Of a stretch of 39,237 nucleotides of DNA, positions 1 to 39,237 are shown piece after piece. This stretch comes from a virus, in IMG/VR virus record IMGVR_UViG_3300045988_144194; one strand, written 5' to 3'. Made by a program: the position numbers and the translations under genes. How positions within the stretch are numbered: position 1 is the first letter of the stretch; the number at the start of each line of letters is the position of its first letter. The notes under the pieces were generated by a model. The model searched no databases, was not told where the DNA came from, and saw only the letters and a program-made list of their open reading frames with translations.

Positions 1-316
1 TACGCGGGCATGGGGTCGGTGGTGCGCCATACGCCGGTGCATCCCGCATACGCGTTGTTCGGGTTGCCGAGCATGACCACACGGCCCGTATGCTCGCCGT
101 AGAGGATGAACGTGGTGTTGCCGCCGAACACGGCGATGGGAACGTTCGACGTTTCCGCTGGACGATACCCCACGGGTATGGTCTCCCGCGCCTGTGTGTA
201 GTTGTTCTCGCCGCTCTGGTTGAATTTCACGTTGCCGCCCGCGAAGCAGATATCACCCACGCGCGTCAGCGAAATACTGTTGTTGCTGTAGGGGACCCTC
301 CATGTCGTGGAACGCT
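1..316 (-). other. Silent alternative tail-fibre C-terminal cassette B (left copy), truncated by the window edge
   Basis: Read from the 15-bp site in the DSLT register, the frame stays open for about 105 codons to the window edge with strongly GC-rich third positions (DSLTQRSTTWRVPYSNNSISLTRVGDICFAGGNVKFNQSGENNYTQARETIPVGYRPAETSNVPIAVFGGNTTFILYGEHTGRVVMLGNPNNAYAGCTGVWRTTDPMPA...). It has no start codon, so it is absent from the ORF track. Confidence 0.6.
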
Positions 317-331
317 GGGTTAGGGAATCCC
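317..331. repeat. Recombination-site candidate L2, GGGTTAGGGAATCCC
   Basis: One of four identical 15-mers in the window. It overlaps the TAG stop of cassette A and precedes cassette B. It contains the imperfect palindrome GGGA-A-TCCC. Confidence 0.7.
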
Positions 332-1104
332 TATCCGCGCCACATGACGGCCCAGTTGACGCGGATAGGTGCCGTGTTTTTACCGTCGAACATGACATCG
401 ATACGGTTTCCGCTTCTCGTGACACGCACCGAGGTGACTTGACGGCCGTTCGCGTCCCAGTCCCCGTTCATGGCGGAAATGCAAACGTCATCGCCCCAAT
501 TACGGCCGAACTGTTGCCGGAACTGGCTGAACGTCCATAGGGTCGCATAACCGCCTGAGCCAGCATCATAGAGCACGCTGCTACCCGTGTAGAGATGCAA
601 CGGGGTTAGGGAATCCCACACGTCGCTCATCGGCTTCAACACGTTGAACAATGCGACTGGTGTGCCGATGGTGATACCGTCCAGCGGGATGCGGTACAAG
701 GGCATGTCGTAGGTGGTGCCCCCGTCCAACGGGCTGGTGGTGTTCACGGCGGGGTCGGTGGGCGTGCCCGTGGTGGGCGTGCCCCTGACCACGACCAGTT
801 TCGCGCTCTCGATGTTCTGCGAGCCCTTCGCATAGCGGCATACGATCAGGTCGTTGCGTTTCTGACCCTGCGACCCGTTGGTGACGATCAGGTCCTCGGG
901 CGTGCCCTGGCTGACGTGACGGCCCTGCATGACCAGCTCGCCCGTGCCGATGGTCACCTTGTTCGCGCTGACTACCGTGATTTCGAACTTGTTGTGCACG
1001 TTCAGGACATAATCGTCCAAGCCGAGAATGCCGGCGTTCAAACCAGCGGCCTGTTCCGCCGTGGCGTGAGCCTTGTTCGCGTGCCCGGTGACGAGTTCAA
1101 CCAT
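331..1104 (-). CDS. Tail fibre / receptor-binding protein, made of a constant N-terminal part (1104-618) fused to cassette A (last 89 aa)
   Basis: Last gene of the tail module. The ATG at 1104 follows a GGAGG and overlaps the upstream stop (AATGGTTGA). The sequence becomes part of the 617-bp repeat exactly at the 15-bp site (..VWDSLT|PLHLYTG..). Confidence 0.8.
   Translation of the reverse strand: MVELVTGHANKAHATAEQAAGLNAGILGLDDYVLNVHNKFEITVVSANKVTIGTGELVMQGRHVSQGTPEDLIVTNGSQGQKRNDLIVCRYAKGSQNIESAKLVVVRGTPTTGTPTDPAVNTTSPLDGGTTYDMPLYRIPLDGITIGTPVALFNVLKPMSDVWDSLTPLHLYTGSSVLYDAGSGGYATLWTFSQFRQQFGRNWGDDVCISAMNGDWDANGRQVTSVRVTRSGNRIDVMFDGKNTAPIRVNWAVMWRG
603..617. repeat. Recombination-site candidate L1, GGGTTAGGGAATCCC, inside the tail-fibre gene
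   Basis: Same 15-mer as 317-331, and inverted relative to 38621-38635 and 38907-38921. It encodes the conserved DSLT junction. Confidence 0.75.
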
Positions 1105-1339
1105 TCCGCTTGCCTCCGTTCTGCATCCAACTGTCGAAGCTGTTATCAAAGTCCTTGAGCTTGTTCACATAGTCCGCGTAATCCTGATCGCAAAACAGGT
1201 AGTCGTGGCCCGTGCCGGAGGAGTCCAACCGGTTGACGTTGTACCACGTCTTGATATCCGGATCGTCCAAGTCCTTGTACCATTTGTTTCTGCCGCAACG
1301 GTCGCATTGCATGACCGTCGCATTGTCGATACGCGCCAT
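1097..1339 (-). CDS. Small Cys-containing tail-module protein, function unknown
   Basis: 80-aa ORF lying between the Tal-like and fibre genes. It carries a CDRCG motif and is translationally coupled to the fibre gene. Confidence 0.55.
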   Translation of the reverse strand: MARIDNATVMQCDRCGRNKWYKDLDDPDIKTWYNVNRLDSSGTGHDYLFCDQDYADYVNKLKDFDNSFDSWMQNGGKRNG

Positions 1340-1356
1340 AATCGGCTCCTTACTGT

Positions 1357-2319
1357 TTACTCGGCCCCGTAATCGACGCTTAGGACGCCGTCGGAGACCT
1401 TGACGATTTTCTTGCTGATAGTCGCGTTGACGGTGATGCCCATGAGATTATCCCTTGCGGTCACGGTGTCGCCAACGTCGAACACGATGCCCGAATCCTC
1501 ATGCACGGTGACCTTCACCTCACCCTCGGACTGCAAGTCCTGAAGTTTCTTCTTCGTGTTCTTCGCCAACTCGTCCGCCTCGGCCGACGAATAGTCGTAC
1601 ACTTGGGCAATCTCGTCCAAACCCTTGAACGTCTGGGTTTGGCTGACGTTGCCTTTCGCGTCCGCGTACCAGTGGACGACCACGCGGGCCGCCAAATCGC
1701 CCTTGCCCAAACCGATCAGGTGATTCGGCTTCCTCCACGTGCGCGTCGCGTCGAAATCGATGAGGTCACTGTCAATCGAATCGCCGTAATGCGCGACAGG
1801 CTCAGCCCAGATGTTGACCCGGCCGGACGCATAGGCAAGCCTGAGTTTCAGTCCGTTGGCCGCGCACATCCTCCGCAAACCCGTATAGCAGTCCGTGTAG
1901 CGGTCGAACCGGTAGCTTTTGATGGTCTGCGCGCCGGCAGTGGGCGAGTCCACCGCGTCGAACACGCCGTCAAGGCCGACGCGACTGATGAGCGAGCCGA
2001 TGACCGTGCTGGCCGTGCCGCTCACGGTGAGATAATCCTTGCCCTTATCAGGCTCCAAAATCTTGTTCGCCAACATGCCGTGCCACGTGCGACCGCCGTA
2101 GGTGAGGGTGCTGCGGCCGTCCTTCAGCGAGTCCTTCAGGGAGTCCACGACGCCCCCGCATTCGCCGCCGTCGAAATACACGTAGCTACCGGCATCGATG
2201 AGCCGGTCCACGGTCAGTTCGAAATCGTTCTCGTCCGCGCCCCACGCGGCGTCGAGCGTGAAGTCCTCAAGGCTGGCTTGGTCCACGTGGCTCGCATCGG
2301 TGACGATCAGTTCCGCCAT
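1357..2319 (-). CDS. Tail-associated / baseplate protein (Tal-like position)
   Basis: Sits downstream of the Dit-like gene. The ATG at 2319 (MAELIVTDASH..) overlaps the upstream gene end. Call rests on synteny. Confidence 0.6.
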   Translation of the reverse strand: MAELIVTDASHVDQASLEDFTLDAAWGADENDFELTVDRLIDAGSYVYFDGGECGGVVDSLKDSLKDGRSTLTYGGRTWHGMLANKILEPDKGKDYLTVSGTASTVIGSLISRVGLDGVFDAVDSPTAGAQTIKSYRFDRYTDCYTGLRRMCAANGLKLRLAYASGRVNIWAEPVAHYGDSIDSDLIDFDATRTWRKPNHLIGLGKGDLAARVVVHWYADAKGNVSQTQTFKGLDEIAQVYDYSSAEADELAKNTKKKLQDLQSEGEVKVTVHEDSGIVFDVGDTVTARDNLMGITVNATISKKIVKVSDGVLSVDYGAE

Positions 2320-3137
2320 GGTGGCTCGCTTTCCTCCTGATAGACGGTCAAATCGACGCCGAAGCCGCTCCACTGCACGATGGAATCGCCAGCCGGTATC
2401 GGCTGGAAGATGTATTCGCCCCCGTTGAGACCGGTTCCGCGCCGGCCCTTGTCGAACACGTTGGTCTCGTCGCCGTTCTCGGCGGTCATGACGATGGTGC
2501 GACGGCCTGCAATCGAGGTGACGGTCACGTAGGAGCCCGAGGGTATGTCCATGTCGAGCGCGTACGTGTTGCCGCCCAACGTGAGTTGCGGGTTCGACAC
2601 CGGTCCGAATATCACCATCTGGAACGGCATGGCAGTGGGCATGGGATTCGAGGCCACCGCATTCCTCGTGGTCGCCAGATAATCATGCGGATAATCATGC
2701 GGATAGTCGAGGTCCAGTCCGGGCGTGAGCGCGTCGCTCCAGAAGTGCTGCGATTCCCAGGCCTTACGCCAGATGCCGTCAAGCATGACCACGGTGAGCT
2801 TCTGCTGGATTATCACCGGCGTGATGGTCTGCGGCTCCGCCTTGACCACGTAGGCGCGAGTCGTCCAGCCGTCAGCATCAAACATGCCCGGCGTTCCTGC
2901 GGCAACGTCGGCATCGAACAGGCGGCGCGTCGAATCCACCTTCTCGGGGCAGCGGACATAGGTTAGGTCAAGCTCGGCCTCGCGCGCCGTACGACTTACT
3001 CCGGTCAGACTCCGGTATCCGATGGTGTACGACCATTCGCGACCGCGCAGCCCATCCGCCGTCTGGGCCCAGGTATCGGGCCCTTCCAGTGGGATCGTCT
3101 CACCGGTCGAGGCGCATATATAACTAAGCGATCGCAT
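2307..3137 (-). CDS. Distal tail protein (Dit-like)
   Basis: Lies immediately downstream of the tape measure gene and has the size typical of siphovirus Dit. Call rests on synteny. Confidence 0.6.
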   Translation of the reverse strand: MRSLSYICASTGETIPLEGPDTWAQTADGLRGREWSYTIGYRSLTGVSRTAREAELDLTYVRCPEKVDSTRRLFDADVAAGTPGMFDADGWTTRAYVVKAEPQTITPVIIQQKLTVVMLDGIWRKAWESQHFWSDALTPGLDLDYPHDYPHDYLATTRNAVASNPMPTAMPFQMVIFGPVSNPQLTLGGNTYALDMDIPSGSYVTVTSIAGRRTIVMTAENGDETNVFDKGRRGTGLNGGEYIFQPIPAGDSIVQWSGFGVDLTVYQEESEPPWRN

Positions 3138-6042
3138 TGCGTATCACCCTTCCGAGTTCACGACCATCCACCTCGATGCCAAGCTTCTCCATAATCAGCG
3201 GCATATCCGCGTGCAGTGAGCGCAGCTCCGATAGGAGTTCGCCGAGTAGTTCGCCGGACTGGTTCTGGTATGTGCCGTTCGCGGTGCCTGTGCCGACGCC
3301 CGAGCGTGGCGTGTCCATGCCGTGCATGAGTTCCATGCTGGCCGGGCTGATCGCGGCGCGGGTGGCGTCCACGAGGCCGGCCCGGCGTTGGAGCATGCCC
3401 TCGGCCAGACCGTCGATGATGCTTTGGCCGGAGTAGAGGGTCCAGCCGTGGCCGCTGAACGGGCCTTCCTTCGCCGGGGAGTGCGGGAACAGTTTCGAGA
3501 TGGCCTCCATCGCGTTGGATGCGGCGTCAACGGCGGCGCTGATGCCGTTCCTGATGCCTTGGGCGAGACCGTCCATGATGCTGCGGCCGGATGAGAGGAG
3601 CCACGAGCCAGCGTTGGAGAACAGGCTTTGTATGCGTCCGGGCAGGCTCTGCAATGTGCCGGTGATGCCTTGCAGGAACTGGTTGCCGGCGTTGCGTGCG
3701 CCCGCCCCCATCTGTCCGCCCCATGCCTGTACGCTGCTTATCGCGCCGGTCAGCCATTGCCAGATTCGTCCGGGCAGCGACTGAAGCCATTGGCCAAGCC
3801 CGGTCAGGAACCGGCTTCCCGCGTCTCCGGCCTGCGCCATCATCTGTCTTCCCCATGCCTGCACGTTCTGGATGGTTTGAGTCAGCCATGTCCAGATTTG
3901 TGACGGCAGCTGCTGTATCCAGTTCGATAGGTTCGTCACGAAGTTCTGTCCGGCTTCCATCGCCTTGGAACCCAGTTGTTGGGCGAACGCGATGGGGAGC
4001 ATGATGGCGTAGCCGAGCCAGTAGCCGATGGTCTGCGGCAGCTGCTGGAACCATTGGCCGATGTTGGTCAGGAACTGGCTCCCCGCGTCCATGGCCTTCT
4101 GCGGCAATGATTGGAACCATTGTCCGATTTCGTCGAGCTTGGCCTTCACCGGTTCCACGAACGTGGAAAAGAAGCCGTTGACGGCGTTGGCCCCGGCGTC
4201 GCCGGAGAACAAGCCGAACAGGTTGCCGGCCATGTCGGCCAGCGAGCCCATCGGGTCGAGCAGGAATCCGATCACCTGGCCGAGGATGGGGAACTTCTCG
4301 TTGAGCCAGTCGATGCCGTCGGCGAGTTTGCCGACCGCCGACGCGATGCCGTCCAACACTCCGGCGACGGTCTCGACCACATTGGCGACCGCCCCGATGT
4401 ACGCGACGAATCCTTTCGCGGCGGCGGCGGCCGTGTCGAGCCCGTCACCCGCCCCTTCGGCGGACTTCTTGCCGCCGTCCAACGCCTTGCCGAGCCGTTT
4501 CAATGAGCCGAGGGCGTCGCCGAGCGCGGAGAATATGCGTTCGAGCGCGTCCATCCACGTGTCCAATGCGCCGCTGTCGGAGAGAGTGTCGGTGAATTTT
4601 TTCACCCATTCGGCCACGCGTTTGAGCTGGTCGGCCATCTTCTGCACGAGGTCGGCCGCGACCTTGATAACCGCACCCAGCAGTTCCGCGGAGCCCTTGG
4701 CCGAGTCGAAGCGGCCGGCCGCTGATTCGGCCATGTCGCCGGCACCACGGAAGGCGTCAGCGACGTCGCCGATAGCGTCGAACAGGCTGCCCAACGCGCC
4801 GGCAAGCTGCTGCACGGCCCCGGTGTCTTTCAGTGCGGCGATGAACTTGCTCCACCATTCGACGGTGTCGGCCACCCAGTCCGCGAAGTCGGAGAACACC
4901 GTGCCCACGTATTTGAGCACGTCCTCGATGGCGGAGACTATCGCGCCGTCCGGCACGAGGCCCTTGAACGACCCGGCGATGCGGTCTACCGCCTCGGTGA
5001 CGCGGCTGCGCGCGGATTCGAACGCCGTGGAGATGGTGTCCTTGAACCGGGTTATCGCGCCGGTCTTGTCGAGCTTGTCGTACAGGCCCTTGATCCACTT
5101 GCCCGCTTCGGAGAACTTCTTCTTCACGTCCGTGACCATGCTCGCGGCCGCGTCGCCCACCTTGCCGAACTGGGAGCTGAACCTGTTGATCGCGCCGGCG
5201 ATGTTCTCCACTCCGACGGCATCGATGACCTTCTGCACGGCCTTGGCGACGCGGTTCTTCACGTTCTCCATGGCCGTGCCGATGCCCTGCGTCGCGTCCT
5301 TGGCCTGCTGTGCGAACGAGGCGTATTTGCCGAAACCGTTCTGGTTGAGGTCCATGACGGCCTTGTTGAAGTCGTCGAAGCTGAACTTGCCGCTTTTCAT
5401 GGCCTCGTACAGGTCGTTCGCATTATGTCCCGCGCCCATCATGGCTTCGGCGACCTGATTGAGCTGGCCGGGCATGGCCGCCTGGATGCTGCGCCACGCC
5501 TGCATGTCCACCTTGCCGGCGGAGAGCATCTGCGTGTACTGGGTGAGCGCGTTCTCCTGCTCCATGGTCGAAGCGCCGCCGGCGAGCATGGCGTTATTGA
5601 ACGCCAAAGCGATGTCGGTGGCCTCGTCGAGGTTCGAGGTCAGTGGGGCGAGCTGCTGGACCATGCCGGTCATGGCCGAGCTGGTGGTGGGCAGACCGTC
5701 GAGCGCGTCACTGATCTTCTTGATGCTCGCGGCCGCATCGGTGGCCGAATATCCGAGGTTCTTCATGACCTTCGGGAAGTTGTTCATCTGGTCGGCGCGG
5801 TCAACTGCGGAACCAAGGCTGGACGTGACGACGGACGCGACCTTGCTGAACACGGTGGACGTGATGCCGGCCACGGCTCCGACCTTGGAGGCGAATCCGA
5901 CGGACAGTCCCTTGCCGATGCTCTGTCCGGTCTTACTGCCGGTGGTTTTGGATGCGTCGCCGAACGCTTTTTCAATGGCCTTGCCGACGCCATCCATGGA
6001 GGGCACGATGGGCACATATGCGGTGGCGAGATTATAGGCCAT
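3124..6042 (-). CDS. Tape measure protein
   Basis: 972 aa from the ATG at 6042. Ala/Gly-rich helical protein with internal roughly 40-aa repeats (QWFQ.LPQ.., AWG.QM.. motifs). Located after the chaperone pair. Confidence 0.9.
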   Translation of the reverse strand: MAYNLATAYVPIVPSMDGVGKAIEKAFGDASKTTGSKTGQSIGKGLSVGFASKVGAVAGITSTVFSKVASVVTSSLGSAVDRADQMNNFPKVMKNLGYSATDAAASIKKISDALDGLPTTSSAMTGMVQQLAPLTSNLDEATDIALAFNNAMLAGGASTMEQENALTQYTQMLSAGKVDMQAWRSIQAAMPGQLNQVAEAMMGAGHNANDLYEAMKSGKFSFDDFNKAVMDLNQNGFGKYASFAQQAKDATQGIGTAMENVKNRVAKAVQKVIDAVGVENIAGAINRFSSQFGKVGDAAASMVTDVKKKFSEAGKWIKGLYDKLDKTGAITRFKDTISTAFESARSRVTEAVDRIAGSFKGLVPDGAIVSAIEDVLKYVGTVFSDFADWVADTVEWWSKFIAALKDTGAVQQLAGALGSLFDAIGDVADAFRGAGDMAESAAGRFDSAKGSAELLGAVIKVAADLVQKMADQLKRVAEWVKKFTDTLSDSGALDTWMDALERIFSALGDALGSLKRLGKALDGGKKSAEGAGDGLDTAAAAAKGFVAYIGAVANVVETVAGVLDGIASAVGKLADGIDWLNEKFPILGQVIGFLLDPMGSLADMAGNLFGLFSGDAGANAVNGFFSTFVEPVKAKLDEIGQWFQSLPQKAMDAGSQFLTNIGQWFQQLPQTIGYWLGYAIMLPIAFAQQLGSKAMEAGQNFVTNLSNWIQQLPSQIWTWLTQTIQNVQAWGRQMMAQAGDAGSRFLTGLGQWLQSLPGRIWQWLTGAISSVQAWGGQMGAGARNAGNQFLQGITGTLQSLPGRIQSLFSNAGSWLLSSGRSIMDGLAQGIRNGISAAVDAASNAMEAISKLFPHSPAKEGPFSGHGWTLYSGQSIIDGLAEGMLQRRAGLVDATRAAISPASMELMHGMDTPRSGVGTGTANGTYQNQSGELLGELLSELRSLHADMPLIMEKLGIEVDGRELGRVIRNAIA

Positions 6043-6064
6043 TGTTTCGCCTTCCTCTGTTCGG

Positions 6065-6550
6065 TTATGGTTGTCCGGTCTGCGGCCGGTTCTCCACACG
6101 GTTCACGGTCGTGAACCGTTGGCTCATGAATCGGTCGAGCTGTTCGACGCTCATGCCAACGGCCTTGATGGTGCGCGTGCGACGGATGGTGTTGCCATCG
6201 GGTTCTGGGTTCTCTGATCCGGCTTCCATGGCCGGGCCGGTTGCTTCCGGCGTGGCGTGGTGTTGGCCGGGGCGTGGCAGCGGCCGGGGTTGCGGGCCGC
6301 GTTTCCTCGGGTCGCCGTTTGCCCAGATCCACTGGTTCATCTGTTCGATGCGCAGCACGGCCAGATACTGGTCGAACGTCCACGCGCGCGGCGTGTCCAA
6401 CGTCTGCCAGACGAGTGAGCCTGCGGGGAGGTTCGCGGCCAGTGCGGCCGTCTCCAACGGGTCCAGGTCGTGCATGCCGAGCCCGTACTCCCTTCTCATG
6501 TCCGCCGCCAACTGGTCAGGACAGCGGTCGAGCAGGAGCACGAGCGTCAT
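6065..6550 (-). CDS. Tail assembly chaperone T segment, probably made as a G-T fusion by -1 frameshift
   Basis: This ORF is in the -1 frame relative to 6547-6903. The slippery heptamer C CCA AAC sits 6 nt before the G stop. Confidence 0.75.
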   Translation of the reverse strand: MTLVLLLDRCPDQLAADMRREYGLGMHDLDPLETAALAANLPAGSLVWQTLDTPRAWTFDQYLAVLRIEQMNQWIWANGDPRKRGPQPRPLPRPGQHHATPEATGPAMEAGSENPEPDGNTIRRTRTIKAVGMSVEQLDRFMSQRFTTVNRVENRPQTGQP

Positions 6551-7886: not shown

Positions 7887-8322
7887 GGTTCACTCCTTTT
7901 CGAGAGATCGATGCGATGGACTTGTCAGCGACAGTCGCGGTCACCGTCTGGTCCGCGCCCTCCGGCAGGACCTTGACGTCGAGGCCCGCGGTCTCGCCGA
8001 CCCTGAGTGTCAACGACTCGGGCGTGACCTGGATGCCGGTGGGTTTGGACGGCAGCGGGGCCGGCAGCACGGCCTCGCCCTTCGCACGCGCATACGAGCC
8101 ATTGACCGTGCAATCCACAACAGTGACCACCTGACCGGTCTTGCCGTTTACCTGACCGTCCAAGGGGAACACGGTCCAACCGAACGCGAGGTCTACCACC
8201 GTGGCGCTTTCAACAACCGGTTTCGCGTCCGCGCTGGTTATCTTGTATCGACGCTGAAAGCCGGATGCTGGAGCCTCCGACACATTGACCTGCTGGCCCC
8301 CTTCACGGGCCGAGACAGTCAC
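7879..8322 (-). CDS. Extension ORF of the major tail protein (reached by -1 frameshift), ending with the N-terminal half of a Big_2-type Ig-like domain
   Basis: In the -1 frame relative to 8334-8909 and contiguous with it after a slip at CCCAAAA. The C-terminus IQVTPESLTLRVGETAGLDVKVLPEGADQTVTATVADKSIASI is Big_2-like. Confidence 0.65.
   Translation of the reverse strand: MTVSAREGGQQVNVSEAPASGFQRRYKITSADAKPVVESATVVDLAFGWTVFPLDGQVNGKTGQVVTVVDCTVNGSYARAKGEAVLPAPLPSKPTGIQVTPESLTLRVGETAGLDVKVLPEGADQTVTATVADKSIASISRKGVNHG
7913..7971. repeat. 59-bp perfect direct repeat (partner 10479-10537)
   Basis: gcgatggacttgtcagcgacagtcgcggtcaccgtctggtccgcgccctccggcaggac is present at both places. It encodes LPEGADQTVTATVADKSIA on the minus strand. 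Confidence 0.95.
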
Positions 8323-10464: not shown

Positions 10465-10630
10465 CGGACACCACCGTGGCGATGGACTTGTCAGCGACAG
10501 TCGCGGTCACCGTCTGGTCCGCGCCCTCCGGCAGGACACGTACCGTCACATTGGTTGTCTCGCCGGCTCGGACGGTGACGGTTTCAGGACTGGTCTCGAT
10601 GGATTGGGGTGCCGGCGTCACACTTTTGGG
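10457..10630 (-). CDS. Capsid C-terminal extension ORF (reached by -1 frameshift) encoding the N-terminal half of a Big_2-type Ig-like domain
   Basis: The -1 frame after CCCAAAA reads PKSVTPAPQSIETSPETVTVRAGETTNVTVRVLPEGADQTVTATVADKSIATVVSDD*. It shares the 59-bp repeat with 7913-7971. Confidence 0.6.
   Translation of the reverse strand, partial: PKSVTPAPQSIETSPETVTVRAGETTNVTVRVLPEGADQTVTATVADKSIATVVSDD
10479..10537. repeat. 59-bp perfect direct repeat (partner 7913-7971)
   Basis: Identical 59-mer, see 7913-7971. Confidence 0.95.
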
Positions 10631-11565
10631 GCTGCGATCACGAAGGCGGGGAAGCGCTTCGTCTTGTCGGGCTGCACGTCGTTGATGGGGTTGGCGATTT
10701 GGAAGCCGACGCGGAACACGACGCGCATGGCGACGCAGTCCTGCTGGGCGAGGTTCAGAATCACCTTGCCGTTATCGTCCGAGATAACCGACTGGTCAAG
10801 CATCTTGTAGGTGATGTCCTGACGGATGCCGACCACGAAGTTCGACCAGTCTGCGCCGAGCAGCACGGCCTTGGTGGAATCCCACGCGCCGTTGTCGACC
10901 TCGTTGAGATCGAAGCCGTAGAGGGTGGACGGCGCGCCGGAGGCGAGCGAGGGCACGTAGATTGGGGTGCCGTTGGTGTTACGCAGGCCGATAAGCTCCC
11001 AGTTCAGGCCCGGCTTGCCGGCGAAGCCGTTCATGGCGAAGCCCTGTTCGGCGAGCTTCTGTCCCATGGAGGCCACGTCCTTGGCGAGGTCCTTGCCCTG
11101 GGTGAGCGTGTTGCCCGCCGTGATGGCCTGCGGGATGATGCCGTCCGGGAAGCTGGACGGCTTGTCCACGCCGAAAAGGGTCGCCTGGTCCAGCTTGTAG
11201 CCGAGCGCGGAAGCCAGACGCGGCATGACCTCCGGCCAGATTGGGATGCCGGAATCCGCGATAACGGCTTCGGGGATGGGCACGATGGCCGCAAGTTCCT
11301 CGGCCGTGATGCTCAGGCCCGACCACTTCATCTTCGTGGTCTGTTTCAGGCCGGTATCACCGCCCACCCAGTAGGCGATCGGCTTGGAGTCAAGCACCGG
11401 CTGCGTGCGCGTGCGGGTGCTCATGCGAATCTGACGCATACGGGTCAGGGACACACTCGACTTGGGAGCGTCCTGGATAATCTGGGTGGCGTATTCGGTG
11501 GGGATGAGTCCGCCGCCGAGGTCGCCGCTGGTGATGATGGAGTTCACGTTGGAAGTCATCGTCAT
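10618..11565 (-). CDS. Major capsid protein
   Basis: 315 aa lying downstream of the scaffold-like gene. Composition and size are typical of HK97-fold capsid proteins. Confidence 0.88.
   Translation of the reverse strand: MTMTSNVNSIITSGDLGGGLIPTEYATQIIQDAPKSSVSLTRMRQIRMSTRTRTQPVLDSKPIAYWVGGDTGLKQTTKMKWSGLSITAEELAAIVPIPEAVIADSGIPIWPEVMPRLASALGYKLDQATLFGVDKPSSFPDGIIPQAITAGNTLTQGKDLAKDVASMGQKLAEQGFAMNGFAGKPGLNWELIGLRNTNGTPIYVPSLASGAPSTLYGFDLNEVDNGAWDSTKAVLLGADWSNFVVGIRQDITYKMLDQSVISDDNGKVILNLAQQDCVAMRVVFRVGFQIANPINDVQPDKTKRFPAFVIAAPKV
10624..10630 (-). promoter_or_regulatory. -1 slippery heptamer C CCA AAA at the 3' end of the major capsid gene
   Basis: The zero frame reads gcC CCA AAA GTG TGA. 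The -1 frame continues open for 55 more codons. Confidence 0.6.
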
Positions 11566-12144: not shown

Positions 12145-12972
12145 TCAGTTCGAGTGCGACGGTCGTGGCACCCCGTAGCCGTCCTTGTAACGGTCGGGGT
12201 AGAGTCGGCGCATCACATAGGTGATCGTGTTCGGGTCGTTGGGATTGTCGGGATTGCCTTTTGTGGTGGCCTTTATCATCCGATAGGTGTCGTCGTCCAG
12301 GCCGCCGTTCTCGATGAGGCTGCGGGCGTGCATGTATTCCGAGTACATGCGGTCAGGGTCATAACCCTCGATGTGAGCTTGGTCCCTGTCCCATTCGGGC
12401 ACGATCTGGCAGTCGCAGTCGTCGTGGAACAGTCTGAACGAGCCTTTGACGTATTTCGCGGTCTTCTCGCTGCGGTACACCCAGCCGCGCGAGCAGAGCA
12501 TCGTGCAGAACGCGCACGTCTTCGCGCCTCTCGGCACGCGCGCGTACCGGGGTTCGGACGGGTCGTGCTCGCACAGGCGTGCGATGGTTTCACGCCCCGA
12601 ATACATGACCCAACGCATCATCGCGCCGACCAGAAACGCCTGCATGGTCTGCGGGTCCGTCCACAGGTGGCCGGCCTGCCAGCGTATGGTCTTGTCGATG
12701 CCGTCGCCGGGAAACGAGTCGGACAGGTCGTACTCCCACGGGTCGGGCACCGATTCGCCACGGACGCGCATATACCATTCATAGGCGGCCTGCGCCGCGA
12801 GGTCGCCGTATTTGACGACCAGTTGCGGCACGTAGTCGAGCAGCATGTCACGCTGCCATTCAGGGCTGAGCTGTTGCAGCGTCTCCCACAGTTTCGCCAG
12901 ATCGCGGCGTGCCAGTTCCACCGCCCGAGCTTGGCTGGCTTGCAGCTGTTCCAGTTGCCGGTTGTCCGTCAT
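12145..12972 (-). CDS. Minor head / head morphogenesis protein (MuF, SPP1 gp7-like)
   Basis: Lies after the portal gene. The Cys-rich motif CAFCTMLCSRGWVY..HDDCDCQIVP is typical of this family. Confidence 0.7.
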   Translation of the reverse strand: MTDNRQLEQLQASQARAVELARRDLAKLWETLQQLSPEWQRDMLLDYVPQLVVKYGDLAAQAAYEWYMRVRGESVPDPWEYDLSDSFPGDGIDKTIRWQAGHLWTDPQTMQAFLVGAMMRWVMYSGRETIARLCEHDPSEPRYARVPRGAKTCAFCTMLCSRGWVYRSEKTAKYVKGSFRLFHDDCDCQIVPEWDRDQAHIEGYDPDRMYSEYMHARSLIENGGLDDDTYRMIKATTKGNPDNPNDPNTITYVMRRLYPDRYKDGYGVPRPSHSN

Positions 12973-14395
12973 CCTTATTGCCTCCGTTCACGAGGGAGTC
13001 AAGCACGCTGCGGGTCTCGGCCTTGCGCTTGTCGACCAACAGGCGTGTGATATCGGAATCCGTGTAGCCGAGCTTCTCCAACACCACGTCGGAGTTGGCG
13101 AGCCATGGAATGGCCGTCACCTGCTTCACGATGGCATCGGAGAGCGCGGCCTGCGATGGGCGTTCGGGGTCACGCCAGTTGACCTGCAACCGATTGAGCT
13201 CGTCGCTGTCCTCGCTGGTGCCGTTGAGGATGGCGATGTCCCTCGCGGCCTTGCGTAGCTGCACGCCGATGGCGCGGCAGGCGTTCTTCGCCTCGATGAC
13301 AAGTTCGCTTTCCGCCGCCATGATCGCTTCCGAAGAAGAAGGGCCGGAATCCGTCATCACGCCGAACTGGCTGAGCGGCACGCCGGTCGCGCCGCTCATG
13401 CGTGCCGCGAGGGCGCGAAGCATGTCGGTGTGCGGCTGCATGGTCATCTGCGTGAACTGGCCGATGACGGGCGCTTGGCCGTCCTCGTTGAGGCTGATGT
13501 TGAGCATCTTCGAGATGGTGGCTTCCCAGCCGGTCAGCTTCCTGCCGTTCTTGTCCTCGGGCGGCTCGTCCGCGCCGATGAGGTAACGTTGCGGGCTCGA
13601 ATAGAATTCGGCGCTTACCTCCATGCGCAGCATGGTGCGCACCGCCGTGTCGGTGATGCTCATGACCTCACGGCTGATGCGCGAGCGGCCAAAGGGGCGG
13701 TTCAGGTCCTGATGGTAGGGGATCAGGTACACAGGCACATGATCCATGTACGTGTTACATGGAGCGTCCGCATGATAGCGGCCTGATTGCGTGCGGCGTA
13801 TACGAATCGTGTAGCCGGGCATGTAGAGCATGAGCTCGGAAGGCACGATGGTGTTCGCCTGCGCGTACTGTGAGCGGTCGATATCGGTTATCGACAACGC
13901 CGCCGACAGGCCGCGACGGGCGTAATCCCACAGGCCGGTCTCATAGAGCGCGCTACGGAACGACACGGACACCTTCGAGCGCAGACCATCCTCGGGTTCC
14001 GCGCTGCGCACGTTCAGGAACGAGCATGAGTGAATGAGCGCGCTGCGGATGGCCTGCGGCAATTCCACGTCGAAGTCGTTGTCTGAAAGAATCGAATCCA
14101 AACCCAACGGATCGCGGCTGTCGTCGCCGACTCCGACGAAACCATCGAACACGATGCGGTCGGCCAAAGCGTCCACCGATTTCTGCGGCCAGCCCACGAC
14201 CTCGCTTATCCCCGCCATGCTGTCCGGCACGGCGATGGACAGATTCTTAAGCTCGTTGCGCCCGTCGTAGTATTTGGTGCGCAAAAGGTTACGTTCGAGC
14301 TTCTGGGACCATTGACGTATCATCAAATCCCACGGTTCTCGGCACTCGTCGGGCAGATTATCGACCTGCACGTTTTCAAGACTGGGAATCTGCAT
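12860..14395 (-). CDS. Portal protein
   Basis: 511 aa from the ATG at 14395, immediately downstream of the large terminase. Its low-complexity C-terminal tail overlaps the next gene by 113 nt. Confidence 0.85.
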   Translation of the reverse strand: MQIPSLENVQVDNLPDECREPWDLMIRQWSQKLERNLLRTKYYDGRNELKNLSIAVPDSMAGISEVVGWPQKSVDALADRIVFDGFVGVGDDSRDPLGLDSILSDNDFDVELPQAIRSALIHSCSFLNVRSAEPEDGLRSKVSVSFRSALYETGLWDYARRGLSAALSITDIDRSQYAQANTIVPSELMLYMPGYTIRIRRTQSGRYHADAPCNTYMDHVPVYLIPYHQDLNRPFGRSRISREVMSITDTAVRTMLRMEVSAEFYSSPQRYLIGADEPPEDKNGRKLTGWEATISKMLNISLNEDGQAPVIGQFTQMTMQPHTDMLRALAARMSGATGVPLSQFGVMTDSGPSSSEAIMAAESELVIEAKNACRAIGVQLRKAARDIAILNGTSEDSDELNRLQVNWRDPERPSQAALSDAIVKQVTAIPWLANSDVVLEKLGYTDSDITRLLVDKRKAETRSVLDSLVNGGNKDDGQPATGTAASQPSSGGGTGTPRSGETVGDAATAQP

Positions 14396-15861
14396 CAGAA
14401 TGCCACCGCCTTCGCTCTTCTTCCCGGATGACGTTTGGAAGTCTTGACGTTCCAATACGCGAGAGCCACCGCTTCCACGGGACTCACGTCGATGTTCTCC
14501 ATGGACGGCTCGTAGCCGAACCCGTCGCCGATTTTCCTGTGCTTCGCATGACCCACCGCCTCGTCAAGCAGAGGTTGGCCGAAATGGGTAAGCCCATGGT
14601 CGTTCACGGCCTGTTCGAGCATCGAACAAGCGTCCGCCACGTCGGAAGGGCGCGGAACCACGATCACTCTTTTCGACACGCCCTTGTCGATGAGGCTGTT
14701 GACCAGGGTGGGGGCTCCCACGCGCCCGTCGATGATGATGCCGATGGCGTTGCGCCATCGTTCCGCACCGTTCTTCTCGGCGGTCAGCCAGTCGGCCAGC
14801 CAGCCGGTGCCGCCGCGCATGCTGCGCGAGGCGATGACCTCCACGTGCGGCAATTCACTCGACTTGCGGGGCGGGCGCACGCACGCCACGAGGGTGACGT
14901 TCGCGCCGTCCGCGCTGAACTTGACCGCATACGAGTTGTAGCCATCCATGCAGGGCTTGTCGGTCTTGCACTTGGCCCACTCGTCAACATCGATATCGGA
15001 CAGCGCGCCGGCCTGATCGTTCCACCAGCCGAGACGTTCGCGGGCGAAACCGTCAGGGGTCATCTTCTCCGACTCGGAAACGACCACGCTTTTCAACAGG
15101 CGGGTGCCGAGCGATGGATTGTATTGGTACCAGCGTTGCTGGTCGTGCACGTCGCCGATCTCGGTCGCCGCCCATTCGAACCAGCACAGGTTCTTCGGCG
15201 GCTTGTCGCGATGCGCGTTGCGGCGCATGCGCGCGAACACCGTGCCCGGCGAAGTCGGCGGGGTCGGCGTGCCCGTGTAGATGGTCAACGGATTGCCCGA
15301 GGGTGCCGACGAGATGGCGGGCTGTATGGCCTCCATCTGCTCGTCGGTCAGCTCCTGCGCCTCGTCGCACACCAGCACGTCCACCGTGAAGCCACGGCCC
15401 GAACTCTTCGAACGGGCGATGAACTCAATGCTGCCACCGTTCTTCAACACGATGGCCTCCTGACCGTTCGTGGCCCGGATATAGGTGACCAACTCCGCCA
15501 GTTCGGGGAACTTGCGCGCGTTCTCGAAGTAGTATTTCATACGCAGGAAATGCTTGCGGCAGGTCTTCACCTCATGCGCCGTATGCAGGATCTTCATGCC
15601 GAGGATCGCGGCAAGGTACAATTCCGTGAACTCGAGAATCGCGTTCTTGCCGTTCTGTCGCGGCACCGCGCACCCGCAATCCGACGCCGCCCATTGCAGC
15701 TTCGAATCCGTGGCGAGCCACCCCTCGAGCACGATGCGCTGCCACTTGTCCGGCTTCATGTCGTAGCCGGCAGCGAGCGCGCACGCCTCTCCTCCCTCGG
15801 ACTGCGCGTGCTTGGGAACCAGAGCGAAGCTAGGTTCCTGTACGCCTCTTCGTCTTGCCAC
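14395..15861 (-). CDS. terL: Terminase large subunit
   Basis: A Walker A-like region (AVPRQNGKN), VLVCDEAQEL (Walker B/DE), and a nuclease-like C-terminal half. The true start may be internal. Confidence 0.9.
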   Translation of the reverse strand: MARRRGVQEPSFALVPKHAQSEGGEACALAAGYDMKPDKWQRIVLEGWLATDSKLQWAASDCGCAVPRQNGKNAILEFTELYLAAILGMKILHTAHEVKTCRKHFLRMKYYFENARKFPELAELVTYIRATNGQEAIVLKNGGSIEFIARSKSSGRGFTVDVLVCDEAQELTDEQMEAIQPAISSAPSGNPLTIYTGTPTPPTSPGTVFARMRRNAHRDKPPKNLCWFEWAATEIGDVHDQQRWYQYNPSLGTRLLKSVVVSESEKMTPDGFARERLGWWNDQAGALSDIDVDEWAKCKTDKPCMDGYNSYAVKFSADGANVTLVACVRPPRKSSELPHVEVIASRSMRGGTGWLADWLTAEKNGAERWRNAIGIIIDGRVGAPTLVNSLIDKGVSKRVIVVPRPSDVADACSMLEQAVNDHGLTHFGQPLLDEAVGHAKHRKIGDGFGYEPSMENIDVSPVEAVALAYWNVKTSKRHPGRRAKAVAF

Positions 15862-23441: not shown

Positions 23442-23920
23442 CACGCGCCCCTCAGAATCGAGCCGAGTGAGGCAGCACCCAGCTTCTGGGCACCTGCGAA
23501 CCGTCTGGCCGTGGAACGTGACTTCGGCTGCGCGGCGGGCAGTTCGAGTGGGTTGCGCATGGTCAACGCCTGCTGCTGCGCCTGCTCCGGGCCGTTGCCG
23601 AGCATCCGCTGGCGGCGGTACATCCACGCCTCGTCCGCGGATAGGCCCCGCGCCTCGCATTCGCGCGCTATCTGCGCCTCAGAGGGCTTCGACTCGTTGC
23701 GCATCCTGCGCACGATGGCGTTCACATCGCCGGAACCGCACCAGCAACCCGTGCTGTTGTCCGCGTAGAAGCGCTTCACCGCCTTCAACGCCTCTCCCAG
23801 CGTCATGTCCGCGCGAAGCTCCTCGTGGAACGTGCGAGCCTCCAAGTCGGTGATGGCCGCGTTGCCGTGGTGGACGCGAATCTTCGCCAGCACGAGCGTG
23901 CTTTCCTTGAGCGTCAGCAT
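23441..23920 (-). CDS. Hypothetical replication-module protein
   Basis: 159 aa from the ATG at 23920. Sits directly downstream of the initiator-like gene. Confidence 0.5.
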   Translation of the reverse strand: MLTLKESTLVLAKIRVHHGNAAITDLEARTFHEELRADMTLGEALKAVKRFYADNSTGCWCGSGDVNAIVRRMRNESKPSEAQIARECEARGLSADEAWMYRRQRMLGNGPEQAQQQALTMRNPLELPAAQPKSRSTARRFAGAQKLGAASLGSILRGA

Positions 23921-24849
23921 GTCAGTACTCCTTCCCGTGATTGGTTTTCGGCGGCTTCCTCGGCCGCGTAGTGGGCTATCAGTGCCGCGTTCGCATCCTG
24001 GTTGGCCTGCGAACGGTTCCACGCCGATGGCGAGGGGCGTGCGGTCGGCTCGGGTTTGGCCGGCAGCGGGTCGTCGTCCCAGTGTTCGCCGTCCAGCCAG
24101 TTCGCCGGGGTGAGCGTGTAGCCGGGCTCACGGTTCGGGTCGGCGGCGTACCTCGACGCCTTGGCGATCAGGAACGTGTTGTTGGTTTTCCTCCGCGCCT
24201 TCCGCCAAGCCTCGAAGGCCTTGCGTTTGCCGGTCTTGCGTGGATAGGTCTGCCAGAACTGCTCGAACTCGATGGGATAATCCTCGTCGGCGCTCTCTGC
24301 GGCCCCCTCGGCTTGCGAGGGGGTTTGTGGGAGAGAGAATTCTTCGTTAGAAGAATTCTTATCTGTATCTGTATCTGTATCTGTATCTGTATCTGGCTTC
24401 GTTTTGCTTGAGTCTTGCTTCACGTCTGCTTCGTTTGTGCTTCGCGTCTGCTTCGTTTTGCTTGAGTCTTGCTTCACGTTGCGTGACTTGCCGGACGCTG
24501 CGCCACCTTTTCGGCCGGCTTCGGCTTTCTTCGCTTTAGCCTCCTCCACGTCAGCACGAGAACGACCCTGAGCTGCGACGAAATCATGCAGCCACAAGGT
24601 GCCGTCCTCATGCTCGTCTAAAAGATGCGCGTCGATGAGTGCGTCTATATCTTCATCGGAAGCGCCGAGCAGACATTTCAAATGGAAGCGGGACAGTTCA
24701 CCGTCGTTTAATTCGCCAGCGCAGTACGAGATCGCGAACGTCCACACGGAGAACGCGGAAGGGTGCTCCATTGCAAACACGCGAACTTTCTCGTTCTGCC
24801 ATAGGCGTGTGCTGAGCTTCGCGAACTTTTCCATATCGTGCCCGGCCAT
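23914..24849 (-). CDS. Replication initiator / replisome organiser-like protein with a repetitive linker
   Basis: The N-terminal winged-helix-like region and conserved C-terminal region (FEQFWQTYPRKTGKRKAFEAWRKA) are of the DnaD/phage-initiator type. They are separated by a low-complexity linker carrying VKQDSSKTK x2 and (DT)5. Confidence 0.6.
   Translation of the reverse strand: MAGHDMEKFAKLSTRLWQNEKVRVFAMEHPSAFSVWTFAISYCAGELNDGELSRFHLKCLLGASDEDIDALIDAHLLDEHEDGTLWLHDFVAAQGRSRADVEEAKAKKAEAGRKGGAASGKSRNVKQDSSKTKQTRSTNEADVKQDSSKTKPDTDTDTDTDTDKNSSNEEFSLPQTPSQAEGAAESADEDYPIEFEQFWQTYPRKTGKRKAFEAWRKARRKTNNTFLIAKASRYAADPNREPGYTLTPANWLDGEHWDDDPLPAKPEPTARPSPSAWNRSQANQDANAALIAHYAAEEAAENQSREGVLTC
24336..24359. 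repeat. Perfect 10-bp inverted repeat AGAATTCTTC-gtta-GAAGAATTCT
   Basis: Read directly from the sequence. It abuts the hexanucleotide repeat. Confidence 0.9.
24361..24395. repeat. Hexanucleotide microsatellite (ATCTGT) x5 plus a partial copy
   Basis: atctgt repeated in tandem. It encodes PDTDTDTDTDTDK on the minus strand. Confidence 0.95.
24396..24425. repeat. 30-bp direct repeat, copy 1 (gcttcgttttgcttgagtcttgcttcacgt)
   Basis: An identical 30-mer recurs at 24450-24479. Confidence 0.9.
24450..24479. repeat. 30-bp direct repeat, copy 2
   Basis: Identical to 24396-24425. Confidence 0.9.
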
Positions 24850-33102: not shown

Positions 33103-34236
33103 ATGGCGAACGTCACCAGATACAAGACCAGCAGGGGTGAGACTCGGTATCGAGTACGATACCGCAAGCCGGACGGCACGCAGACCGACAAGAGGGGCTT
33201 CCGCCGCAAGATAGACGCGGAGAACTGGGCGGCGGAGCACGTCACCATCGCCAAGGCCACCAACAGTTATATAGATCCGCAAGCCGGGAAGGCGACGGTG
33301 GAAGCATTGTGGCCGTCATGGATAGCCGCGAAGAAAGTCAAGTGCAAGGTAAGCTACATCGACTCGCTCGAAAGGGAGTGGAATCATCGCGTGGAACCCA
33401 TGTGGGGGAGCCGCGAGCTCGTATCCGTCACACACTCCGAAGTGCAGGAATGGGTGGCCGCGTTGACGGCGGCCGGGTCAAGCGCCACCGTGGTATTGCG
33501 CGCCGAAGGCATCCTATCCGGCCTGTGCAAACAGGCAGTGCGTGACCGGCTCATAGGCTCCAACCCCTGCGACGAGTTGGAGCTGCCGAGGAAGCACCGG
33601 AAGGAGCACCGGTATCTGAGCATGGCCGAACTGCTATGCCTGGCGGAAGCGTCGGGCTGGCGCAAACTCATTGTGCTGGTCCTGGGCTTGACCGGCATAC
33701 GCTGGGGAGAGCTCGTGGGTTTGCAGGTCAGGGACGTTGATTTGCGACGCCGCCGGCTGTGGATACGCAGGAACGCCACCGAGGTGCAACGTGAGATAGT
33801 GGTCAACACTCCTAAGTCGGACAAGTGGCGTCAGGTCGTGTATCCGGCAATGCTGGACGATGACATGCGGGCGTTGTGCGAGGGCCGCAAGCCCGACGAT
33901 ATCCTCTTCGAGGCTCCGGGCGGCGGCTACCTGCGTCGCACGCATGGGCCCAACACGACAAGCTCGTGGTTTTACTGGTCTAAGCGGCGCGCGGGCATCG
34001 AGGGCCAGATGACCGTGCATGATCTGCGGCATACCGCCGCGAGTCTCATGGTCAAAGCCGGCGCGAACGTCAAGGCCGTGCAACGCCAGCTCGGCCACAC
34101 TTCCGCCGCGATGACATTGGACGTGTACGCCGACCTGTTCGACGATGATCTGGACGCGGTGGGCGAGGCCGTGAACGCGATGCTGCTGGAGAATGTGGGC
34201 AAAATGTGGGCAAGGGATGCCGGTGAGGCCGCGTAA
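33103..34236 (+). CDS. int: Tyrosine integrase
   Basis: N-terminal arm-binding/SAM-like region (YRVRYRKPDG..FRRKIDAENW). The catalytic motifs GIRWGEL (R), HDLRHTAAS (H-x-x-R) and LGHTSAAMTLDVY (H...Y) are present. Confidence 0.92.
   Translation: MANVTRYKTSRGETRYRVRYRKPDGTQTDKRGFRRKIDAENWAAEHVTIAKATNSYIDPQAGKATVEALWPSWIAAKKVKCKVSYIDSLEREWNHRVEPMWGSRELVSVTHSEVQEWVAALTAAGSSATVVLRAEGILSGLCKQAVRDRLIGSNPCDELELPRKHRKEHRYLSMAELLCLAEASGWRKLIVLVLGLTGIRWGELVGLQVRDVDLRRRRLWIRRNATEVQREIVVNTPKSDKWRQVVYPAMLDDDMRALCEGRKPDDILFEAPGGGYLRRTHGPNTTSSWFYWSKRRAGIEGQMTVHDLRHTAASLMVKAGANVKAVQRQLGHTSAAMTLDVYADLFDDDLDAVGEAVNAMLLENVGKMWARDAGEAA
34192..34213 (+). repeat. Arm-type site candidate P: 2 x AATGTGGGCAA
   Basis: A 22-bp tandem 11-mer inside the 3' end of int. 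An identical 22-mer recurs at 34402-34423. Confidence 0.6.
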
Positions 34237-34261
34237 TCCAAGCGGGAGTAGGGCTTTCTGG

Positions 34262-34299
34262 TTTGGTTGGCCGGGGTTCAATTCCCCGCGCCTCCACCA
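34262..34299 (+). other. attP core candidate: 3' end of a tRNA/tmRNA-like gene (..CGGGGTTCAATTCCCCGCGCCTCCACCA)
   Basis: T-arm plus acceptor 3' strand plus CCA, with no 5' half upstream. Flanked by the 14-bp direct repeats GCGGGAGTAGGGCT at 34242-34255 and 34333-34346. Confidence 0.65.
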
Positions 34300-34360
34300 A
34301 TCCGCCTCGGCGGAAACAAGCCGCTTTGCCTTGCGGGAGTAGGGCTGAGCGGCTTTTCTT

Positions 34361-34396
34361 ATTCCCACGGTTTCCCTCGTATTCCCTCGGTTTCCC
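34361..34396 (+). repeat. Two 16-bp direct repeats, ATTCCC(A/T)CGGTTTCCC
   Basis: attcccacggtttccc tcgt attccctcggtttccc, located between the core and the P' arm sites. Confidence 0.8.
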
Positions 34397-34401
34397 GGAA
34401 T

Positions 34402-34423
34402 AATGTGGGCAAAATGTGGGCAA
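34402..34423 (+). repeat. Arm-type site candidate P': 2 x AATGTGGGCAA
   Basis: Identical to 34192-34213 and in the same orientation, on the other side of the core. Confidence 0.6.
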
Positions 34424-34429
34424 AAATTG

Positions 34430-34460
34430 AGCCCCGCACCGGATGGTTGCGGGGCTTTTG
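34430..34460 (+). terminator. Hairpin GCCCCGCA..TGCGGGGC plus TTTTG
   Basis: An 8-bp GC-rich stem and a short T run, downstream of int and the att core. Confidence 0.45.
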
Positions 34461-37748: not shown

Positions 37749-38618
37749 ATGCTGTTACGAGAGTTTTGGAACGGCCGGTTTTGGCCGTATTGCACGGCGA
37801 ATCTGCGTGAGTCCACGTGTGTCGGCTATGAGTCGGCGTGGCGGTTGCACGTGGCCCCGAGGTTCGGCGCAATGCAGATGGAATCGATAAGCGTTGAATT
37901 GGTGGACAAGTGGCTCGCCGGTTTCGCCAGTTCGGGCGCGGCGCGCAAGGCGTGGGCCGTGCTCAGGGCCATATTGAGGCGGGCGATCCGCTGGAATCTG
38001 CTGGACGTGGATATCACGAGGCGTGATATCCGACTGCCGGCCAAGCCGCATTACGAGCCGGTGATATTGGGCATCCGTCAGCAGCGATCGCTGTTGCAGG
38101 GCTTTTACGACCATCCGCTTGAGGCGTGGCTTATCTGCGCCGTCTCATGCGGCCTGCGCACCGAAGAGGGGTACGGTTTGGAGTGGAGTGACATTGATCT
38201 GCGCGCAGGCGTCCTGCATATCGAGCGCGGTTTGCAATGGGTGAGCGGCCATGAGGTCGTCGTGCCGCCGAAGACCGAATTGAGCCGTCGCACGCTCCCG
38301 TTGCCGCGCTTCGCGGTCAAACGGTTGCGCGAGCTCAAGCCGCGCGAGGGAGGGCGACTCATCGGTGCGCTCACCCCGCCACAGGTGGCACGCCAGTACA
38401 AGGGCTGGTGCAAGCGGTATAGCCTGCCGCATGTGCCCGCACGCAACCTGCGCCACTCGTGGGCGACGAACACGTTGGCGGCGGGAGCGGATATCGCCAT
38501 CGTGTCGAAAATGCTCGGCCACAGCGATATCAAAACCACCGCGAAGTACTACCTCAAACCGGATATCACGGCTTTGCGAGACGCGCAACGCCTCTGGGAA
38601 CGAGCCCTAATAGCCTGA
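37749..38618 (+). CDS. Tyrosine site-specific recombinase (shufflon/Rin-type invertase candidate)
   Basis: GLRTEE (Arg), NLRHSWAT (H-x-x-R) and LGHSDIKTTAKYY (His...Tyr nucleophile). Smaller than int and lacks the arm-binding N-terminal domain. Its stop lies 2 nt from the 15-bp site at 38621. Confidence 0.9.
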   Translation: MLLREFWNGRFWPYCTANLRESTCVGYESAWRLHVAPRFGAMQMESISVELVDKWLAGFASSGAARKAWAVLRAILRRAIRWNLLDVDITRRDIRLPAKPHYEPVILGIRQQRSLLQGFYDHPLEAWLICAVSCGLRTEEGYGLEWSDIDLRAGVLHIERGLQWVSGHEVVVPPKTELSRRTLPLPRFAVKRLRELKPREGGRLIGALTPPQVARQYKGWCKRYSLPHVPARNLRHSWATNTLAAGADIAIVSKMLGHSDIKTTAKYYLKPDITALRDAQRLWERALIA

Positions 38619-38620
38619 AC

Positions 38621-38635
38621 GGGATTCCCTAACCC
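38621..38635. repeat. Recombination-site candidate R1, GGGATTCCCTAACCC
   Basis: Inverted copy of the 15-mer at 603-617. Confidence 0.75.
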
Positions 38636-38907
38636 CGTTGCATCTCTACACGGGTAGCAGCGTGCTCTATGATGCTGGCTCAGGCGGTTATGCGACCCTA
38701 TGGACGTTCAGCCAGTTCCGGCAACAGTTCGGCCGTAATTGGGGCGATGACGTTTGCATTTCCGCCATGAACGGGGACTGGGACGCGAACGGCCGTCAAG
38801 TCACCTCGGTGCGTGTCACGAGAAGCGGAAACCGTATCGATGTCATGTTCGACGGTAAAAACACGGCACCTATCCGCGTCAACTGGGCCGTCATGTGGCG
38901 CGGATAG
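38623..38907 (+). other. Promoterless copy of tail-fibre cassette A (DSLTPLHLYTG...AVMWRG*)
   Basis: Identical to the last 94 codons of 331-1104. No constant N-terminal part and no RBS. It starts at the site. Confidence 0.75.
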
Positions 38908-38921
38908 GGATTCCCTAACCC
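38907..38921. repeat. Recombination-site candidate R2, GGGATTCCCTAACCC
   Basis: Inverted copy of 317-331. It overlaps the cassette A stop codon. Confidence 0.7.
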
Positions 38922-39237
38922 AGCGTTCCACGACATGGAGGGTCCCCTACAGCAACAACAGTATTTCGCTGACGCGCGTGGGTGATATCTGCTTCGCGGG
39001 CGGCAACGTGAAATTCAACCAGAGCGGCGAGAACAACTACACACAGGCGCGGGAGACCATACCCGTGGGGTATCGTCCAGCGGAAACGTCGAACGTTCCC
39101 ATCGCCGTGTTCGGCGGCAACACCACGTTCATCCTCTACGGCGAGCATACGGGCCGTGTGGTCATGCTCGGCAACCCGAACAACGCGTATGCGGGATGCA
39201 CCGGCGTATGGCGCACCACCGACCCCATGCCCGCGTA
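38909..39237 (+). other. Promoterless tail-fibre cassette B (right copy), open to the window edge
   Basis: Same as 1-316 on the opposite strand. 109 sense codons with no stop, in the DSLT register. Confidence 0.6.

Follow-up and report, generated by a model that had tools for sequence, protein, structure and literature searches.

The virus record IMGVR_UViG_3300045988_144194 of IMG/VR, a stretch of 39,237 nucleotides that we call the window and treat at its full length, begins and ends inside the cassette array of a Rin shufflon, a phage inversion system that switches the C-terminal part of a receptor-binding protein (RBP). Positions 1-617 and 38621-39237 are exact reverse complements of each other without a single mismatch, and identity collapses from base 618. 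An earlier note on this DNA had described a perfect 617-bp terminal inverted repeat, and this comparison bears it out. A repeat search returned the pair as the sole long inverted repeat in the window, the runner-up being 29 nt at 79% identity, and chance cannot be its source. The left arm (1-617, minus strand) is composed of a rix site, cassette A, a second rix site and cassette B, the latter without the final base of its TAG stop, whereas the right arm (38621-39237, plus strand) carries the identical rix-A-rix-B unit reading away from rin, the gene of the tyrosine-recombinase invertase. The rix site joining A to Rc, the constant N-terminal part of the receptor-binding-protein gene, lies at 602-617 on the minus strand; it reads GGGATTCCCTAACCCC, encodes DSLT and makes up the inner boundary of the left arm. 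The same GGGATTCCCTAACCCC at the rin|A junction (38621-38636, plus strand) makes up the inner boundary of the right arm. Within each arm another copy of the core lies where the tail of A meets the head of B, at 317-331 on the minus strand, in direct orientation relative to the Rc|A site, and at 38907-38921 on the plus strand. The exact core TTCCCTAACCC, which is the sequence quoted for the published system (PMC6109161), is found at the Rc|A, rin|A and A|B junctions, the junction sequences being GACGTGTGGGATTCCCTAACCCCGTTGCAT for Rc|A and CTGAACGGGATTCCCTAACCCCGTTGCAT for rin|A. The inner edges of the repeat thus match to the base the rix sites adjoining Rc and rin, that is, the two outermost sites of the shufflon. 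The further claim that the repeat consists of A-B cassettes lying between recombination sites holds as well.

Rc (618-1104, minus strand) comprises 162 codons and is 88-99% identical in relatives (145 viral contigs). It runs in frame through rix into cassette A, and the resulting open reading frame (ORF) at 331-1104 on the minus strand encodes 257 aa, made of the 162 constant codons, DSLT from rix and then 91 codons. Cassette A, a variable cassette (Rv) at 331-601 on the minus strand, has a product of 93 aa when counted from the rix-encoded SLT. Cassette B (1-316, minus strand) opens at the second core copy directly after the stop of A, in a frame differing from that of Rc-A, and reaches the contig end. 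Rv cassettes measure 93-109 aa and Rc ~165 aa. At the other side of the window rin (37749-38618, plus strand) encodes a protein of 289 aa without an arm-binding domain, which matches Pfam PF00589 (1.1e-17) and the SAM-like core-binding domain PF14659, its catalytic residues having been judged by eye. Two nucleotides separate the stop codon of rin from rix, and A, core and B then follow exactly as in the left arm. Only A and B are visible within the record, both in one orientation relative to the flank, and the array is cut.

Judged by its sequence, the system is the one that Mavrich et al. described in 2018 as the Rin shufflon; it is already known and brings no new mechanism. Rin shufflons were described in the Bifidobacterium prophages Bb423phi1, Bl157phi1 and Bl30698phi1 (Mavrich et al. 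2018, Sci Rep 8:12772, PMC6109161) and have been reported as well in Eggerthella lenta clade 1 prophages (PMC8778435). The published loci have an 11-bp rix core before each Rv, a constant Rc, the arm-domain-less tyrosine invertase rin, and a directly oriented rix right after the expressed gene (PMC6109161). Likewise, the window has the identical TTCCCTAACCC core, an arm-domain-less tyrosine recombinase directly beside the array, Rc in frame through rix into cassettes of ~95-110 aa and a direct rix after the expressed cassette; whole-array inversion variants would, by inference, coexist here too in one population. By HHpred the published Rv cassettes resemble the RBP head of TP901-1 and Rc resembles the RBP of phage 1358 (PMC6109161), and our phmmer search of Rc-A against the PDB gave no match. 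The window differs in its attP, which is tmRNA-3'-end-like, whereas the published Rin phages integrate in dnaJ2, and in that only two cassettes are visible, the record being cut inside the array, whereas no terminal inverted repeats were reported for the published loci. Phage-borne site-specific inversion that exchanges the C-terminal region of the tail-fibre or RBP gene product is also known from Min of p15B, Gin of Mu and Cin of P1, and Min, like Rin, has several crossover sites and many isomers. These are, however, serine invertases with ~26-bp sites and a Fis-dependent enhancer, whereas the recombinase adjoining the array in the window is tyrosine-type, unlike Gin, Cin, Min or Hin, and its sites are unrelated to theirs. 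With the R64/IncI1 shufflon (Rci, sfx, pilV) the system shares a tyrosine recombinase, asymmetric short sites, inversion only, a multi-segment array and the exchange of the C terminus of an adhesin; it differs in the sequence of rix versus sfx, in acting on a phage RBP versus a pilin and in its actinobacterial host, and the likeness of Rin to Rci is that of a shared superfamily.

Viral contigs were scanned for relatives, 125 of them with the Rin query and 145 with the Rc query; individual loci are given below by their number (L). About 38 contigs span the locus without a gap, from rin across the array as far as Rc, each with 2-5 different cassettes that always face both ways, and across relatives the cassettes recur at varied positions and orientations. 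The tail-to-tail junction of B and D, which has no rix, is preserved in more than 30 loci in either orientation, exactly what inversion at rix only predicts. The head of A was seen in public contigs behind five left contexts, namely rin, Rc and the tails of B, C and E. Identical mirror-oriented cassettes occur in 0 of the ~38 contiguous rin-to-Rc loci, whose sole inverted self-matches are those of the two-state and wrong-exit contigs described below, and no terminal inverted repeat was found in the first 127 fetched loci, a count of little weight given that most of these are partial contigs. The apparent duplicate C cassettes of L012 are ~60% paralogs and were rejected as a mirrored duplication. 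A scan of the genome collection with Rin returned only distant Bifidobacterium relatives (63-74%) and no closed isolate genome with A and B.

Some of these loci deserve description in their own right. Two perfectly identical copies of rix plus cassette B stand in tandem in L096 (IMGVR_UViG_3300045988_114268, 1-654), either through unequal exchange or as the trace of circle excision between directly oriented rix sites, a type of reaction that the Rin system supposedly avoids. L212, a 373-kb contig, holds in one contiguous array (4726-5701) two B-family cassettes in direct orientation with 96% nucleotide identity, and paralogous cassettes can therefore share one shufflon. In L063 (IMGVR_UViG_2907562514_000001, 6364-6382) GGGATAGGGAATCCC comes directly after the rin stop, and the end of Rc, in reverse, comes next, with no cassette; two left contexts are fused head to head, and ordinary rix inversion cannot yield such a fusion. 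Rc and the tail genes lie ~6 kb from rin in L053 (IMGVR_UViG_3300029540_000159, 10,727 bp), versus ~37 kb in the window, as either a deletion derivative or a misassembly.

We find that assemblies of a Rin shufflon do capture two states in one contig. L045 has rin joined to D, comes to B, E and C, and then to the last 81 nt of rin reversed, so that it ends in an inverted copy of the rin 3' end (a 98-nt perfect inverted repeat) and its single-copy rin has two different partners, D and C. In the contig 3300045988_120845 the last 39 nt of rin are joined to D, the whole array and the backbone follow, and the contig ends with rin and 40 nt of C. L026 (IMGVR_UViG_3300029044_000167, 4110 bp) has one array between two inverted rin alleles, 94% and 84% identical to that of the window, and is very likely an inter-strain assembly chimera formed via shared cassettes. 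The array of L186 (IMGVR_UViG_3300045988_086561, 3001-5000) consists of E, B, D and E' between two convergent and different Rc-type genes, with no rin within 6.5 kb; its E copies are 96% identical and mirror-oriented, and either chimeric assembly or a genuine arrangement with two RBPs would account for the contig. In both L026 and L186 the assembly path looks as if it had left the array by a wrong exit. Many contigs stop precisely at rix, and one of them (111226, 38,740 bp) is the backbone alone, with a core at both ends. Published read-level data document the coexistence of whole-array inversion variants, both within a clonal lysogen and among virions (PMC6109161).

At its outer ends the contig halts at 'TA', one base before the TAG stop of B would be completed. 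In the viral and metagenome collections scanned, the terminal 28-mer continues with G and a rix core, mostly GTTTTCCCTAACCC, in 42 of its 42 public occurrences, and at least seven different cassette heads follow this third core among them. The predicted continuation past both contig ends is G and TTTTCCCTAACCC, then one of several heads. Given that the third rix directly follows the terminal 28-mer in all public copies, the rest of the array is absent from the record; what is missing is probably the third rix and three more cassettes, ~1 kb in all. Of the fetched loci, 39 contain the terminal 54-mer and 0 the terminal 55-mer, the last allele-specific base being position 55 (mirror 39183), the sole difference from the closest public B allele, L125. 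We infer from this signature that the stopping point is an assembly-graph boundary, at which the path would merge with a co-occurring B allele through the k-1 = 54 overlap of a k=55 graph. Because the contig ends before the core, the stopping point is not the crossover point, and branching at the third rix, by which the contig would stop after the core, was rejected in that form as the cause of the contig end. Closure of the circle by joining 39237 to 1 was rejected too, as it would delete both the B stop and the rix that follows B in the 42 public copies; B would then lack a stop and read 27 codons into its own antisense.

The same strain is present in other samples, as shown by contigs of SRR4408065, SRR8090564, SAMN05827141 and SAMN10275756, which over 1.1-4.8 kb have 0-1 mismatch to the window. 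The exact Rin protein is present in five other assemblies; four of these contigs run into A, and the fifth, L085 (rin 99% identical at the nucleotide level), diverges right after the core into a C-type cassette and then B, which is why cassette C is expected in the missing part of the window's array. L087 (SRR4408065, Logan k=31) extends 102 nt from rin into A and is unbroken at 30 nt, and the head of A therefore has a single predecessor, rin, in that sample. L088 (SRR8090564, Logan k=31) breaks 30 nt into A. On the Rc side, L221 (SAMN10275756) stops exactly where the core after Rc ends, so that Rc has at least two partners in this sample. The contigs L084 and L086 each stop 55 nt inside A, a length that has no tie to a known k of their assembler and is given little weight. 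The contigs of this strain indicate that a single-copy A usually lies beside rin, that the array also contains C and a convergent pair, and that switching is ongoing.

What can be read directly, namely how the arms are built, which system this is, the two-state contigs in relatives and the k-mer signature at the contig end, leads us to regard the terminal repeat as probably the assembly footprint of a single-copy A-B unit present in two orientations, and not as a real genome structure. Both states would coexist in the sequenced sample, and A-B would be present once in this phage. In a Rin shufflon the recombinase inverts the DNA between oppositely oriented 11-bp rix cores and thereby fuses Rc to different C-terminal cassettes. 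In some molecules the A-B end of the array would lie beside Rc and in others, after inversion of the whole array, beside rin. Both ends of the 38-kb backbone would then lead, in the graph, into one shared node, rix-A-rix-B, and an assembler that appends this node at both ends would produce a perfect 617-bp terminal inverted repeat. The node would end where the B allele of the window merges with k-mers of other B alleles, a few bases before the third rix. When the two ends of a unique region lead into the same segment, that segment is printed twice from the assembly graph, once at each end of the contig and in opposite orientations, as with the isomers of chloroplast inverted repeats and with contigs flagged 'ITR' (inverted terminal repeat). 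Unlike in the chloroplast case, the shared node would arise here from inversion at sites shorter than k, and either both orientations or a double copy must exist in the sample. A literature search found no paper on inverted-terminal-repeat artefacts caused by phage shufflon inversion. The earlier note had left a choice between mirror-image cassette sets on both arms and one invertible segment assembled in both orientations; the two-state contigs and the graph-like outer ends favour the latter, and the former is the less favoured. Its view of a 38-kb backbone flanked by inverted sites as an unusual geometry finds no support, since inverting one arc of a circle is the same as inverting the other, and the backbone is on the circle the complement of an ordinary invertible segment of ~1.3-1.7 kb.

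Several points weigh against the footprint explanation. A mixture of two states predicts that rin|Y and Rc|Y junctions are as abundant as the junctions of A, and an assembler normally stops at rix. Extension into A at both ends needs something extra, be it coverage-coordinated path extension, loss of the other junctions at low coverage, or a true double copy. The k-mer boundary fits a node-centric k=55 graph and is one base off the output of SPAdes at K=55, which would be one base longer. The absence of mirrored cassettes from relatives is weak evidence, as short-read assembly collapses a perfect inverted duplication of 617 bp. In an exact look-up the Rc-A fusion protein was absent from other assemblies (as was the stand-alone A ORF).

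Among the other explanations the one that survives best, though we consider it unlikely, is a true mirrored duplication. The locus would then read rin-rix-A-rix-B-rix-[centre]-rix-B'-rix-A'-rix-Rc, with six cassettes in a partly palindromic array, and short reads would collapse its arms into the same contig. A single exchange, mediated by Rin or homologous, between two copies of the genome in opposite states could create it; slightly less likely again is the specific form in which the phage carries two identical mirror A-B sets round a short centre as the fresh product of Rin-mediated intermolecular exchange. A duplication fits the way in which the contig crosses from Rc and from rin into A unbroken at rix, as unique extensions give, and a second left partner for the head of A would explain the break of L088 and the ends of L084 and L086. 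Cassette number and content do vary, and the identical tandem B-B of L096 and the 96% B paralogs of L212 suggest that duplication by unequal exchange occurs or gets assembled. However, none of the contiguous relatives has identical inverted cassettes, the Rv genes of the three published complete Rin loci are dissimilar (6-30% identity, PMC6109161), and in SRR4408065 the same strain has A with one predecessor only, rin. Moreover, six cassettes exceed the maximum of five in relatives, an extra identical copy brings no new specificity, and the outer edge of the repeat lies at an allele-specific k-mer boundary, not at a point of recombination crossover.

Improbable, and distinctly more so than a duplication, is an inter-strain chimera, in which the two junctions would come from two related co-resident phages, each fixed in one arrangement, whose near-identical backbones were merged. 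The contig end does show a second B allele co-occurring in the sample, two rin alleles in L026 and two Rc alleles in L186 each flank one shufflon, and L084 and L086, from samples that also hold 100%-identical segments, differ from the window by an indel upstream of rin. The backbone, however, is one continuous 38-kb sequence with no sign of a mosaic break testable from sequence, and Rin activity is documented in clonal populations, which makes it a simpler source of two junctions; in practice such a chimera is a sub-case of an assembly artefact. Two further readings can be practically set aside, namely a linear phage genome whose ends, protein-primed or hairpin-ended, are real inverted repeats, and a chance fold-back formed during library preparation. 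Only the bare fact of inverted termini speaks for them. Each arm consists of coding cassettes that belong to an RBP switch, and a fold-back at random would not land on rix twice. The phage has an internal attP and genes for a large terminase, a portal protein, an integrase, RecET and a DnaD-like initiator, the ORFs scanned gave no signal of terminal-protein/PolB or protelomerase, and direct joining of the ends costs B its stop codon with 27 antisense codons read.

The window is a near-complete excised (attP) genome of a temperate Bifidobacterium siphophage with no host flanks. The record is taken as the excised form because the integrase and the attP core are internal and host flank is not present, in accordance with the earlier proposal that the phage is excised or circular and was opened within the switching region. 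The window is ~61% G+C, and its minus strand from ~0.3 to 16 kb is a siphovirus structural module, with the tape measure protein (3124-6099), major capsid protein (10618-11565), SPP1-type portal (12860-14455) and large terminase (14395-15861), all on the minus strand. A lambda-type phage integrase is encoded at 33103-34236 on the plus strand, followed by an attP region with a tmRNA-3'-end-like core that ends at 34299, so that integrase and attP together span 33103-34299 (plus strand). Positions 34150-34299 give a partial match to the 3' part of tmRNA (Rfam RF00023, E=6e-8, below the gathering threshold), and 100%-identical contigs of other samples end at 34299 or shortly after it, L219 two bases beyond (34300) and L218 27 bases beyond (34325). 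Repeated AATGTGGGCAA motifs on either side of the attP region (34192-34434) may be putative arm-type sites of the integrase. Further ORFs encode RecE/RecT-like proteins and a DnaD-like replication initiator. The closest GenBank phages are Bifidobacterium phages with merely 66-73% nucleotide identity. A perfect 59-nt direct repeat lies in the head/tail structural module (7913-7971 and 10479-10537, copies 2566 nt apart), and a perfect 30-nt direct repeat (24396-24425 and 24450-24479, copies 54 nt apart) lies within the replication-initiation-protein ORF (23914-24849), where it may represent iterons or an origin. The early region carries a tRNA-Trp gene with a CCA anticodon (19008-19083, minus strand).

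A contig of this kind would be scored by completeness tools as complete with inverted terminal repeats, when actually ~1 kb of shufflon is missing and 617 bp are repeated. A terminal inverted repeat with inner edges on short recombination sites is also a possible in silico marker of an invertible segment active in the community, one that could be mined. Were the mirrored duplication true, a tyrosine shufflon recombinase could enlarge its own cassette array by intermolecular recombination, beyond inversion. The same strain recurs across several infant-gut metagenomes. What it carries looks like a Rin shufflon on a tmRNA-integrating phage, and the occurrence of this system on a phage with a tmRNA-type attP would be a modest extension of its known distribution.

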